NCBI GenBank assembly: GCA_963765765.1
Contig: CAVXYC010000017.1
Span: 71,125 to 135,124 of the forward strand
Reading direction: 5' to 3'
DNA from: an uncultured Chloroflexia bacterium
Lineage (GTDB): Bacteria; Chloroflexota; UBA6077; JACCZL01
DNA length: 64,000 nt
Every line of letters starts with the position of its first letter. Within the stretch, counting starts at the first letter, position 1. The position numbers and the translations under genes were made by a program. Below, one piece after another: positions 52,873 to 59,633 of this stretch. A model generated the notes under the pieces. It ran no database searches. It had not been told where the DNA came from and was given only the letters and a program-made list of their open reading frames with translations.

Positions 52873-52897
52873 CGGCCGATAATGGGGTTATCGGAAC
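52873..52897. other. dif-like palindromic site 1
   Basis: GGCCGATAA-TGGGG-TTATCGGAAC. Confidence 0.5.
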
Positions 52898-53060
52898 GAA
52901 CCGTGATGTCTCACGGTGCTCAGCAGCTCGTCGTATATATCCATCGGCTTGGCGATCACCGATGCTGGCCCGGTAATCGGAGTTCTCTGAACGAATGATG
53001 CCGAATGGCTCAGTCCCCGGCGGCCGTACCAGGTGCTTGGGTCCTATCCGCGAGCAGCGC

Positions 53061-54065
53061 CTACTGGATGAGCTCGGTAGCCTGGGCCAGGACCGACTGT
53101 GGCAGTGTGCGCCCCAGCGCCTGAGCGGTCTTGAGATTGATCGTAAAGTCGTACTTCACGGGTCGCTCGATGGGCAGGTCGCCTGGATTGGCGCCTTTGA
53201 GGATCTTGTCCACAAAGGTCGCCGCGCGCCGGAAGTTGTCCGTGATACTGGCTGCATAGATCATCAGCCCCCCGGCGTTAATGAATTGGCTGCTCGAGTA
53301 CATCGTGGGGAGCCGGTGTTGCGCCGCGAGCTCCACGATCCGCGGGGCCACGACAACAAACGCGACGTTCGCCGTGACAATCACGCCGTCGGCCCCGGCG
53401 GTGATTGCATCGGCCACAACAGTGTCGATATCGTCCGGGCTATGGAGCTGCAGGGGCACAAGCTGGACGCTCAAACTGCGCGCGGCAGTCTCCAGCTCAC
53501 TGGAGATACCCACGGCATTCTGATTCCACAGGACGGCTACACGGGACATGCCCGGAAGGCCTCGAGTAGCTCCAGACGCTCCCCCTGCTCCTCCCCGGCG
53601 GACAAAGTCAAGCCTGTGATGTTACCGCCCGGCCGAGCCAGGCTCGCCACCACACCCTCCGCCACCGGATCCCCGCCCGTGGCAGCAAAGACAGTCGGAA
53701 TCGTCGTTGTACGCTTGCTGGGCTGCGCGGATCGCCACGGGCTTTCCGCGTACGATCACGTCGAGCTCGAGCCGGACCAGGTCGGCCGCCAGCTCCGGAA
53801 GGCGCTCCTCCCTGCCATCGGCGTAGCGCTGCTCGATGGCCAACATGCTCGCCATCGATGTACCCGAGCTCACGCAGGCCCTGCGGAACGCCGCGAATTC
53901 CCGGTCGCGCTGCCGAGTGCCAGGAAGCCAATCTGGGGAATCCGCGGCGGGTTGCGCTCATGTGCGGCCGGAAGCGGACACCGCAGCCGGCCAGATGCCG
54001 CTCTGGCCATGGCCAGCCCGCCGCGCAGGAAATCGCGCCGCTGTAGAGGTTGGTAACCAGGTCAC
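53061..54065 (-). CDS. ABC_sub_bind Tat lipoprotein, paralog 2 (multiple frameshifts)
   Basis: QRRDFLRGG N-terminus by manual translation; FVDKILKGANPGDLPIERP...QATELIQ C-terminus. Confidence 0.8.
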
Positions 54066-55169
54066 TGGATGACCTCCGTCGCCTGGGCCAGGACGGTTGA
54101 CGGAATCGTCAAGCCCAAGGCCTGGGCCGTCTTGAGATTGATCGCAAAGTCAAACATGACTTGGCTGCTCCACGGGCAGATCAGCCGGATTTACGCCGCG
54201 GAGAATCTTGTCTACGTAGATCGTCGAGCGCCGGAATAGGTCGGCTCGATTCGGTCCATATCCCATCAGCGCACCGTGGGCGGTGGCGTCGGCTATCTGC
54301 CACATGGAGGGCAAGCCAAACTGGTTCGCCAGCTCGATGATCCGCGCCTGAGAGCTCCCAGTGCCAAATAATGGCCCACTCAGGACGTACAGCGCACCCG
54401 CCCGCTCCTGGACGGCGGATTCCATGACAGCATCAAGGTCACCGAGGCCGCTCACAGCCAGGAAATGCAGCTCCAGACCCAGGTTGGCGGCCGCCGTCTC
54501 ATAGGGCTGGCGGCCATCCAGGATCCCGATAGTGGCATCAAACAGGAGACTGACGCGTCGGAGTCCCGGCACGGTCTCCTGGATGAGCTGAAGCGGCTTG
54601 CCCGCAAGGAGGGTGAGTACTGAGACCGGTCACATTGGTGCCGGGGGCGGGCGAGGGTCTCCGCGAGCCCGCTGGTCACCAGATCGCCCTGGCCGATGCT
54701 CACGATGGGAATCGTGGTGGTGATGGAGCGGACCGCACGGGCAACCGTAGCGGCCGGAACCACGATCACCTCGGGCTGGAAGCGCTCGATGATGGCCGTA
54801 AACTCGTGGACCTGCTCGTCGCCACTGGCGTACGCCTGTTCGATGACCAGGTTCTGTCCCTCCGCGTAGCCGCGATCGCGCATGGCTTCGCGGAATGACA
54901 TCCATGAATACCGAGGTTGCCGGGTCCGAGGGCACCGGATTCGAAAGATAGGCAAGCCGCCGCTGCTGCATGGGCCGCGACGACGAGAGTCGCTCGAAGC
55001 CACAAGCTGAGAGCAGACTTAACCCAGTGACGGCCAGGCTTCCGCGCAGAAATCTGCGGCGAGCAAGGTGCCTCACGGGATCTTCTCCGTTGCCTGCGCG
55101 ATGACCACCCACCACTGGGGTCGGGAGTGCCAGTGGTGGCGCCAGCAAGATCCGCTCAGGACGCTTCAC
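54062..55169 (-). CDS. ABC_sub_bind Tat lipoprotein, paralog 3 (frameshifts)
   Basis: RRRFLRG...LLSAC; YVDKILRGVNPADLPVEQP; ends QATEVIQ. Confidence 0.8.
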
Positions 55170-56139
55170 TGAATCACTTCCGTAGCCTGAGCGAGCACGC
55201 TGGGTGGGACGGTGATACCCAGGGATTGTGCGGTCGTGAGGTTCACCAGGAAGTCAAACTGCGTTGGCTGCTCGATGGGCATCTCCGCGGGGTTGCTGCC
55301 CTTCAGGATGCGGTCCACGTACGACGCCGCGCGACGATGAAGCTCAGCGCGGTTGGCGCCGTAGGCCACGAGGCCGCCGCGAGCCACCGCCTCGGTCTGG
55401 AACCATGCTGTTGGCAGCCGATGACGAATCGCCAGCTCAGCGATCCGGTCCTGGTTCGCAGCAAATATGGCGCCGCCTACGATGTAGAGTGCCTGCGCAT
55501 GCTCACCTAGAGCGGTCTCCATGGCGGCGGGGAGATCCTCGGCCGTCGCGACGCCGACAAAGTGAATATCGAGGCCCAGATTCCGTGCGGCGGTCTGATA
55601 CGGATCACGTTCTTGACCCGGTGTGACTGTCGAACACCACGGCAACGCGCGTCAGATTCGAAACGACTCTGCTGGAGCAGCTCGAGCTGGCGGCCGATGA
55701 GATTCGGGGTGCTCAGCCCGGTTACATTGCCGCCCGGCCGAGCGAGGCTCGCCGCAAGTCCGCTGGTTACGAGATCCCCGGCGCCGCCACAGACGATAGG
55801 AATCGACGTGGTGGCCGCGCGGACGATCCGCGCATCAACGACCGAGGGGACGAAGATCGCTTCTACCTGGAGCCGCACCACTTCTGCCGACGCTTCGGCA
55901 AGACGCTGCGCGCCATCAGCGTAGCGCTCCTCGATGATCAGGTTGTGACCTTCCATATTTCCCAGGTCATTCAAGCCCTGCCGAAACGCCACGGTGAGCG
56001 CGTCGGTAGTGGGATTGCGGAGCGTTCCCGAGAGTCGGGCAATACGGTGTGTCGGAACTGATTGAGTCACCGGGAACGAGCAGCCCGCGGCGCCAGCAAG
56101 TCCGACGCCGAGAAGTCCCAGGAGCCGCCGACGATTCAC
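55166..56139 (-). CDS. ABC_sub_bind Tat lipoprotein, paralog 4 (frameshift)
   Basis: MNRRRLL...[34 protein letters not shown]. Confidence 0.82.
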
Positions 56140-58324: not shown

Positions 58325-59336
58325 TGGATCAGCTCGGTCGCCTCGGCAAGGACCGACTGAGGAATCGTCAGACCCAGCGCCTGTGCGGTCTTGAGATTGA
58401 TCACCAGGTCGAATTTCTCCGGCCGCTCCACCGGTAGCTCCGCTGGATTGGCGCCCTTCAGGATCTTGTCCACATAGGTGGCGGCGCGCCGCTCCTGGGC
58501 GGCACGATTTGCCCCGTAGGCGATCAGTCCGCCGGCTGCCACATATCGCCGATCGGCCGACATCATTGGCAACCGGTGCGTGAGCGCCAGCGCGCCGACA
58601 CGCGCCACATTGCTCGTCAGCACGATATTGTCCAGCAGGGTCAGCGCATCCACCCGCTCACGCACCGCTCGCTCGAACGCGCCCTCGAGGGCGGCGGGCT
58701 CACGCACCTCCAGCGGCACCAGCTGTCAGCCCAAGGGGGCCGGCCGCGGCCTCCGCTATCTGCAACTCGCCGGCCTGGTCGGAGAGCAGGGTCAGGGTTC
58801 CAGATAACGCCTACGCGTGACACGGACGGGAGTGCCTGCCTCAGGATTTCCAGCCGCTTCCCGATCAGCTCGCGGGAGATGCTGGTCTGCCCGGTGACGT
58901 TGCCTCCTGGCCGTGCAAGACTGGCCACAAAGCCGTCCGCCACCGGGTCGCCCGTCCGTGCCATCACAATCGGGATGGTGCTGGTGGCACGCATTGCGGC
59001 CTGGATAGGAAGGGCCCCGGAGGCCACGATCACGTCGACGGGCATGCTTACGAGCTCGGCGGCCAGCTCAGGGAGGCGATCGACCTGCCCATCGGCGGGT
59101 CGCCACTCCACGGTGACCGTGCTGCCCTCAACGTACCCCAGCTCTGCCAGGCCCTCCCGAAAGGCGTCGGCCCATTCCTGTGCGCCGGTCCACAGGTAGC
59201 CGATACGCGGTGTCCGAACCGCCGGCTGAGACCGTGGCGATATCAGCCCGCAGCCGGCCAGCAGACCGAGGCCGGCCACGGACAGGCCACCCCTCAGGAA
59301 GCGGCGACGGGGGCAGGATGGCCCGAGTGGCGTCAT
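58321..59336 (-). CDS. ABC_sub_bind Tat lipoprotein, paralog 7 (frameshifts near 58730-58790)
   Basis: RRRFLRGG...[35 protein letters not shown]. Confidence 0.85.
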
Positions 59337-59438
59337 GATGGGGCTAGTGTACGCCCGCGGGACTGACGGCGCTATGGCGCGCTCCGTGCCCGCGCGGTTA
59401 CCGGAGCGCAGGCAATTCGACGATAGGTGATGTCTCGA

Positions 59439-59590
59439 GTGCTGGACGTGGCTACGCGCGACGAAGACGGGGCCGGGGTGCATCCCCTGTAGAGCTTGGC
59501 GGCTTTTGGGCCAGCGGTACAGCGCGGCGAAAGAGCGTCGTCTGGCGGGTGTGAGGTCGCGGCGACTCGTGTCGCGGGGGTTGAGCTAGC
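59439..59590 (+). repeat. Second, internally deleted copy of the 3' end of the 51110-51760 phage-like gene
   Basis: gtgctggacgtggctacgcgcgacgaagac...cgtcgtctggcgggtgtgaggtc aligns with 51535-51735. Confidence 0.8.
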
Positions 59591-59633
59591 GGCCGCGTAG
59601 GGATTAGCGGAACGAGTTTGCCTTACTTCTGGT

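Follow-up and report, generated by a model that had tools for sequence, protein, structure and literature searches.

Palindromic repeats resembling IntA-type recombination sites at gene boundaries in the accessory DNA of an uncultured Chloroflexia bacterium

Three palindromes in an array of binding-protein genes

The window analyzed here is a stretch of 64,000 nucleotides from an uncultured Chloroflexia bacterium (GenBank assembly GCA_963765765.1, contig CAVXYC010000017.1, positions 71,125 to 135,124). It contains eight paralogous genes for solute-binding proteins (SBPs) of the family PF04392 and, between these genes, three short palindromes. The palindromes belong to a larger repeat family in this genome, whose members may well be core sites of a tyrosine recombinase. 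The genome of the window is called G000 and its contigs are given C-numbers; the assembly consists of 33 contigs and is 92% complete. It was compared with 30 related genomes, which include G001, a genome of the same genus, and the unpublished G006, on which no result depends.

Paralog 1 (51811-52818, plus strand; Pfam E = 2.5e-40) encodes a lipoprotein with a twin-arginine-type signal peptide. Paralogs 2 to 5 (53061-57014, minus strand) were recognized by Pfam matches on pieces of open reading frames (ORFs) and by six-frame matches; paralogs 2, 3, and 4 are frameshifted. Paralogs 6 and 7 (57279-59483, minus strand), likewise recognized by Pfam and six-frame matches, are both split by frameshifts. 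Paralog 8 (59634-60651, minus strand; Pfam E = 1.6e-42) also contains a frameshift. It is a member of a 1.1-kb cassette family, and a Protein Atlas search with this protein confirmed PF04392 but was uninformative on taxonomy. Other genes of the window are also found in two overlapping frames: valyl-tRNA synthetase (40733-43445), branched-chain permease (47089-48080), Peripla_BP_6 (48226-49511), and HtrA (61357-62561). Because essential genes such as valyl-tRNA synthetase are frameshifted as well, the breaks in the SBP genes are probably assembly errors. Owing to the frequent frameshift errors, "pseudogene" calls in this assembly are unsafe. Paralogs 1, 7, and 8 each have, upstream of their start, a recurring motif of ~30 nt on the plus strand (~51700-51735, ~59530-59560, and ~60755-60790). 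It is in the sense of the gene for paralog 1 and antisense for paralogs 7 and 8.

The three palindromes were first noticed in a sequence-only reading of the window, and their sequences are as quoted there. Site 1 (52874-52897, plus strand) is an exact match to the core of the repeat family, with CCGATAA at 52876-52882, the 5-nt spacer TGGGG, and TTATCGG at 52888-52894 (nhmmer E = 3.7e-5). It lies between the convergent paralogs 1 and 2, 56 nt beyond the stop of the former and 164 nt beyond the stop of the latter. Site 2 (57217-57242, plus strand; nhmmer E = 0.12) has the 7-nt spacer TGTGGGG and one mismatch in an arm (CTATCGG). It lies between paralogs 5 and 6, ~200 nt upstream of the former and 38 nt beyond the stop of the latter. 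Site 3 (59591-59613, plus strand), 19 nt beyond the stop of paralog 8, is degenerate: 9 of the 10 bases of the right arm are kept, while the left arm and the spacer are eroded. All three sites are intergenic and have their G-rich spacer on the plus strand, and a minus-strand PF04392 gene lies directly to the right of each (Pfam on ORFs). The earlier description of co-oriented sites just past the 3' ends of the minus-strand blocks 2-5, 6-7, and 8 thus holds. The profile search found no site in the gaps between paralogs 2 and 3, 3 and 4, 4 and 5, and 6 and 7.

Site 3 was not detected by the profile search at E <= 10. In an alignment with the homologous cassettes of C1, C7, C20, and C30, however, it falls exactly on their intact sites, which indicates a decayed copy and not a chance look-alike. 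Judged by sequence, the three palindromes range from nearly intact (site 1) through worn (site 2) to a decayed relic (site 3). It is plausible that the 5- and 7-nt spacers are homopolymer errors of a 6-nt spacer, given that 10 of the 14 spacers made purely of T plus a G run are 6 nt long and that the assembly contains frameshifts. Spacers of 7 nt are found at site 2 and at sites in C6, C10, and C27 (C27:47296), and homopolymer errors are likely there. One soil-metagenome contig has two extra G in the spacer of site 1.

The repeat family, its gene context, and its flanks

The consensus of the family is GTTCCGATAA-TGGGGG-TTATCGGAAC, in which inverted arms of 10 bp enclose an asymmetric, conserved spacer with a modal length of 6 nt. 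The genome was searched with nhmmer, using a 32-column profile built from 20 copies. The search gave 30 places at E < 0.01 and 37 at E < 1. A working list with further weak copies holds 46, and the total number of sites is roughly 37 to 46. The exact core CCGATAA-N5..7-TTATCGG has 19 occurrences in the genome and the reversed control has none; the pattern given in the sequence-only reading has 21. The half-site TTATCGGAAC occurs 50 times, whereas ~6 occurrences are expected from base composition.

The repeat family is private to this genome among the genomes searched. The exact core is absent in 28 of the 30 relatives, including G001. Cores with up to two mismatches number 27 in this genome and 0 to 3 in each of the 30 relatives. 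An exact 20-mer scan gave 8 loci in 185,579 species genomes and 4 loci in the JGI metagenomes. Most of the loci elsewhere are single hairpins in unrelated bacteria. The informative ones are L025 and L028, which are short metagenome contigs from relatives of this organism, and L020, which is described below. No Rfam family matches the palindrome; only three tRNAs were matched. In the literature, no account was found of cassette arrays bounded by IntA-type sites, nor of palindromes beside PF04392 genes.

In Elizabethkingia, Chryseobacterium, and two metagenome contigs (L017-L019, L021, L024, L026, and L027), each locus has one copy of the 20-mer, in the form of a terminator-like hairpin with an A/T run beside it. 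These cases show that an identical short palindrome can appear with an unrelated role.

The 67 six-frame matches to PF04392 in the genome were merged into 45 gene intervals. Of the 37 profile sites, 20 lie within ~210 nt of the estimated end of a PF04392 gene (15 nearest the 3' end and five nearest the 5' end), and all such end zones together amount to well below 1% of the genome. The enrichment beside PF04392 genes, which had been proposed as a test of the sequence-only reading, is therefore observed. The other 17 sites flank unrelated genes, such as those for methyltransferases, SnoaL-like proteins, glyoxalase, LigB, phosphofructokinase, PhoX, and amidohydrolase, so the family is not specific to SBP genes. 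In two arrays there is one site per intergenic gap, regardless of gene family or strand. They are C7:225-5045 with five sites, of which those at 1412 and 2546 match the profile weakly (E = 2.1 and 2.9, respectively), and C23:452362-457714 with six.

The sites are strongly clustered. A neighbor is found within 2 kb for 19 of the 37 sites, against 2.3% expected. Neighboring pairs have the G-rich spacer on the same strand in 18 of 19 cases (p = 3.8e-5), and the exception involves a variant palindrome with a 16-nt spacer. Orientation is uniform within clusters and independent of gene strand.

The flanks of the sites are mosaic. All sites were oriented alike and 500 nt were compared on each side. 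Homology abuts the site on the left in 22 pairs and on the right in 39, and in only one pair on both sides (60 pairs with one or both). For example, the right flank of site 2 is 78% identical over 258 nt to that of a site at C15:661402. The 1.1-kb SBP cassette is found in six contexts with 84-91% identity (C1, C7 twice, C20, C30, and C17), including window paralog 8. Between C1 and C7, homology covers the cassette and the full length of both bounding sites, and goes no further. Of the five comparisons with the C1 copy, four (C7a, C20, C30, and C17) show homology that begins directly at the site past the stop codon or takes it in. The upstream site is reached by the cassette homology in two (C7a and C7b); otherwise the homology ends 70-130 nt short of it. 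DNA in common beyond a site is seen only for the C20 and C30 cassettes, over ~120 nt.

One SBP cassette with two bounding sites (C20:548824-552900, L009) is located between an integrase gene and a phage small-terminase gene. Past its distal site, a stretch of 134 nt has 84% identity to the DNA upstream of an integrase gene in C30.

Similarity to the sites of known recombinases

The closest likeness in sequence is to the att sites of Rhizobium etli CFN42. In the report on this system (PMC4928290), the tyrosine recombinase IntA recombines attA and attD, in integration as well as excision, and its minimal site of 23 bp, TCCGATAAGCATTACTTATCGGA, consists of two palindrome arms and a divergent center. 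In the record of plasmid p42a, attA is TCCGATAA-N7-TTATCGGA and lies 109 nt upstream of intA. Its arms match the family at 8 of 8 positions on each side, and the left arm at 9 of 10 if the flank is included. The consensus and eight exact genomic copies contain both att arms, and in both systems a short divergent central region separates the arms. The position beside a recombinase gene is also similar in one case: an Xer-like integrase gene (C30:93979-94931) starts ~150 nt from the site C30:95081, at the end of an SBP array, with the site upstream of the gene. The two systems also differ. The center is 7 nt in attA and has a modal length of 6 nt here; R. etli has two sites, compared with ~40 in arrays here; and the integrase beside the C30 site is another protein, Xer-like.

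A parallel is found in Pararhizobium sp. BT-229, which carries an IntA homologue (38% identical, E = 2.5e-54). The palindrome CGATAA-N6-TTATCG occurs 39 times in its genome (G031), against 0 for the reversed control, and 36 of the copies are on the 1.6-Mb contig (its C3) that also encodes the IntA homologue. These palindromes have the full arms TGGCCGATAA and TTATCGGCCA with variable N6 spacers (loci L020 and L039-L042). They bracket genes tightly, in places at 12-13 nt from start codons, and ~22 sites are found in 114 kb. In two stretches of the arrays, 24 of the 27 ORFs have no Pfam hit, and the remainder include an AbiE pair. The overlapping locus L020 contains a PIN-domain gene and a Tad2-like gene. 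No integrase gene was found near the Pararhizobium arrays, and no site above chance beside the IntA homologue. In IMG/VR, 24 contigs hold TTCCGATAA-N6-TTATCGGAA. In two of them, with GC contents of 0.57 and 0.59, integrase genes lie 0-90 nt away from the palindrome, and the encoded integrases share 27-31% identity with the C30 protein. The remaining contigs are mostly low in GC, carry terminase or portal genes close by, and look like chance matches or plain hairpins.

The sequence-only reading had compared the palindromes with dif, the target of the XerC and XerD recombinases. In its full form this explanation states that the sites are targets of host XerC/XerD and that the cassettes are Xer-mobilized modules, like pdif modules or integrative mobile elements exploiting Xer (IMEXs). 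The architecture of ~11 + 6 + 11 bp, with inner ATAA and TTAT, is as in dif (PMC5357621 and PMC6449649); the former paper gives two half-sites with partial dyad symmetry around a central region of 6-8 bp. Small accessory modules are bounded by sites with no integrase inside, and the genome encodes Xer-like recombinases. However, the two arms here are the same sequence inverted, with no distinct XerC and XerD arms and no separately conserved XerD arm, whereas PMC6449649 describes distinct arms, of which that for XerD is more conserved. The same paper gives the centers of pdif sites as variable and mentions flanking inverted repeats of pdif modules, while the spacer of the present family is conserved. 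Neighboring sites in this genome are direct repeats (18 of 19), not inverted. Sites in inverted orientation flank pdif modules. Exact copies are lacking in 28 of the 30 relatives, which nevertheless carry Xer-like recombinases (29-36% identity to the C30 integrase). The setting also differs, as the present arrays are chromosomal and belong to an uncultured soil bacterium. No host dif was found in the 33-contig assembly with a degenerate dif-like pattern. This pattern matched 3 places in two of five other genomes, near the level of the reversed control (one in each of two), and may be poorly suited to the search. From these comparisons, the anatomy of a tyrosine-recombinase core stands, identity with dif is not supported, and it is very improbable that the cassettes are Xer-mobilized modules in this full sense.

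The arrays also resemble integrons. Co-oriented sites are found at cassette boundaries near stops and starts, the cargo is a mixture of accessory genes, the arrays are far from an integrase gene, and one array, in C30, begins beside a tyrosine recombinase gene. The attC sites of integrons are long imperfect hairpins of 57-141 nt, in contrast to the simple 26-bp palindromes here. The C30 integrase scores 79.6 bits against the 265-bit cut-off of TIGR02249 and is closer to the XerC, XerA, and XerD models. Transcription in the C30 array is directed towards the integrase instead of leading away from it.

Cassette exchange, alternative explanations, and differences between genomes

The reading we favor, with about as much confidence as doubt, is that the palindromes are tyrosine-recombinase core sites of the IntA-att type, which bound and reshuffle small cassettes in accessory DNA. 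It draws on the anatomy of the sites, their copy number, their restriction to this genome among those searched, their position at gene boundaries, their co-orientation, their mosaic flanks, one site-bounded difference between genomes, and the identity of their arms with those of the IntA sites. Recombination at the sites, past or present, would have been carried out by the C30 Xer-like integrase, by host Xer proteins, or by an enzyme that has been lost or is unassembled; all three are candidates. The recombinase would bind the arms and exchange strands in the conserved spacer. A circle with one site could be inserted into a resident site, which would leave two co-oriented sites flanking the new DNA. 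Repeated insertion would build arrays of cassettes with one to four genes each, and recombination between co-oriented sites would excise or reshuffle them. The commonest cargo at the sites is PF04392 binding-protein genes. Part of the earlier proposal of an Xer cassette system that accumulates SBP genes survives, namely co-oriented sites at cassette boundaries, and flank homology breaks at these sites. The restriction to SBP genes is lost with the 17 sites beside other genes.

A wider proposal is doubtful, but possible: an undescribed integron-like cassette platform in which simple IntA-type palindromes of 22-26 bp replace attC hairpins and co-oriented arrays are mostly far from recombinase genes, found independently here and in Pararhizobium sp. 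BT-229. Judged by the genes between the sites, its cargo would be mostly PF04392 binding proteins and small enzymes here, and mostly genes with no Pfam hit in Pararhizobium.

The site-bounded difference is seen in the metagenome contig L025, which is ~92% identical to this genome. A single site in L025 corresponds to a pair of co-oriented sites in C27 that are separated by 42 kb. The order in L025 is a match to C27:89285-88419, a GNAT gene not found in this genome, the site, and a match to C27:45997-45650, and homology to C27 resumes at the first base of the site. The 42-kb stretch in C27 contains ordinary catabolic and transport genes and no mobility gene. Such a difference matches the outcome expected of excision between direct sites or of insertion of a circle at one site. 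In public reads, only three soil-metagenome runs cover small shares of the window (0.05-0.10) with short contigs, and no RNA run is listed among those that cover it. No contig from these runs bridges a site-to-site deletion, and no excision product was seen. Most joints in the contigs are due to cross-mapping between paralogs at 88% likeness. Of a 151-nt contig from run X3, only 90 letters fall on the window; they match positions 52810-52897 with no difference except two additional G in the spacer. The contig hints weakly at another junction at site 1 but is not used as evidence here.

Several observations weigh against recombination of cassettes at these sites. The L025 difference is the sole site-bounded one between genomes and comes from a single contig of 2.4 kb, with the extra GNAT gene. 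Spacer length varies from 4 to 8 nt among the copies. Only 20 of the 45 merged PF04392 genes have a site nearby. No site is present in the six-gene PF04392 array C1:274284-281747, nor in the array of about four genes at C1:9173-12260; the palindrome is thus no general feature of SBP arrays even in this genome. Co-orientation may be caused by orientation relative to replication: the local GC skew, which is weak, agrees with site orientation at 32 of 46 sites, which form ~19 single-orientation clusters. On the side of the enzyme, 21 PF00589 matches were found in the genome and three are within 1.5 kb of a site (C30:93979-94931, C20:548824, and C1:184077). These three are unrelated beyond the family level (29-31% identity over parts). 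The orthologue of the C30 integrase in G001, 87% identical, has no site upstream, so the link between integrase and site may only reflect shared accessory DNA. A six-frame search with IntA of p42a (E <= 0.001) found no IntA homologue in this 92% complete genome; the query works, as it finds the Pararhizobium homologue. Between IntA and the C30 integrase, no likeness was detected other than that of the family.

A further point against recombination is a composite element of ~170 nt. At seven sites, a second palindrome lies ~38 nt further on; it shares the arms but has a spacer of 16 nt, and a -35-like hexamer comes ~22 nt after it (C1:3098, C1:191287, C6:22652, C7:225, C7:45094, C10:48968, and C27:88176). 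The element is also present in the metagenome contig L028 (2273-2378). Only the arms and the hexamer are conserved, and the downstream genes differ (PhoX, amidohydrolase, and an Exo_endo_phos protein). A spacer of 16 nt is impossible for a crossover site, and a DNA-binding or hairpin element accounts better for the second palindrome, which may serve as an accessory binding site or be a sign of a DNA-binding or hairpin function.

The whole family could have such a function: a protein-binding or RNA-hairpin element without recombination, for example an operator, a nucleoid or insulator element, or a 3' or intercistronic stabilizer, which was spread by duplication of SBP genes. The conservation of the arms amid variable flanking and linking sequence is consistent with it, as are the same arms at a distance of one helical turn more in the composite elements. 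Some sites are 18-45 nt upstream of SBP starts and others are just past stops. The best copies of the family form 12-bp stems (-25 to -26 kcal/mol, z of -2.6 to -5.4), and the same 20-mer is terminator-like in Elizabethkingia and Chryseobacterium. On the other hand, the window copies fold weakly (z of -1.2 to +0.9), none of the three is called as an intrinsic terminator, and there is no U-tract, so a terminator is not supported. Two or more of the sites are flanked by convergent genes and have no promoter there to act on. The independence of orientation from gene strand, together with its uniformity within clusters, also speaks against this explanation. Conservation of the spacer equals that of the arms, and operators do not usually show this. 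If genes had been duplicated with random end points, homology would not stop at the sites. Moreover, the SBP arrays of the relatives G001 and G009 show no recurrent palindrome between genes, and the palindrome has no Rfam family. We regard a binding or hairpin element as rather unlikely, but as a serious rival to core sites.

Short intergenic palindromes restricted to one genome among those searched are also reminiscent of repetitive extragenic palindromic (REP) sequences, bacterial interspersed mosaic elements (BIMEs), or miniature inverted-repeat transposable elements (MITEs). These could be spread by an HUH transposase, either a REP-associated tyrosine transposase (RAYT) or one of the IS200/IS605 type, which acts on single-stranded hairpins, and the orientation would be set by replication, as the skew agreement might reflect. 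The palindromes are sometimes paired, often lie just past gene ends, and have a loop of between 6 and 16 nt; pairs ~40 nt apart resemble REP doublets. In REP/RAYT systems, a RAYT gene is flanked by repeats and hundreds of copies are dispersed. The present family has only ~40 copies, which are tightly clustered and not dispersed, and its spacer, or loop, is strongly conserved. Three weak PF01797 matches are found in the genome, and none of them has a site within 1.5 kb. Mosaic flanks are unexpected from simple insertion, and no pair of empty and filled sites with a target duplication was seen. Such mobile repeats are an improbable explanation.

Should the sites be active as the core sites we favor, this would show that an IntA-like tyrosine recombinase with simple att sites is able to assemble chromosomal cassette arrays, and integrons and the pdif modules of Acinetobacter would not be the sole bacterial routes to the collection of single genes. 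Active sites would also provide a mechanism for the large, patchy expansions of orphan SBP genes in soil bacteria. If they are inert relics or regulatory hairpins, the finding is a repeat in accessory DNA that is private to this genome. The cultured Pararhizobium isolate makes the cassette idea testable at the bench. Either way, the SBP array of the window is placed as a 10-kb tRNA-Gly island that is missing from the nearest relative.

This island of 10.1 kb (51024-61120) contains all eight SBP paralogs and the three sites and is absent from G001. Its integration target is tRNA-Gly(CCC) (61129-61202, minus strand; ARAGORN and Rfam). The distal border is a partial direct repeat of the 3' part of this tRNA gene (50967-51023), 91% identical over 57 nt to 61121-61177. 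Contig C314 of G001 is collinear with the ATP-binding cassette (ABC) transporter operon and the tetratricopeptide repeat (TPR) gene of the window, and continues with tRNA-Gly, HtrA, and aldolase; the part from ~50.85 to 61.13 kb is missing. The gap in G001 and the tRNA repeat at the borders characterize the SBP array of the window as a classical tRNA island. No integrase gene is present within it. The palindromes subdivide the island and do not bound it. The arrival of the array in the window is thus explained first by a separately acquired tRNA-Gly island and not by the palindromes, to which the sequence-only reading had tentatively attributed the growth of the array. The C7 and C23 arrays also have no counterpart in G001, an absence at the gene level only, as that assembly is in 650 contigs.

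Elsewhere in the window, a fragment of a tyrosine integrase gene (9494-9869, corresponding to positions 114-169 of PF00589) is located ~130 nt from tRNA-Met. It may be a remnant of another tRNA-targeted island.

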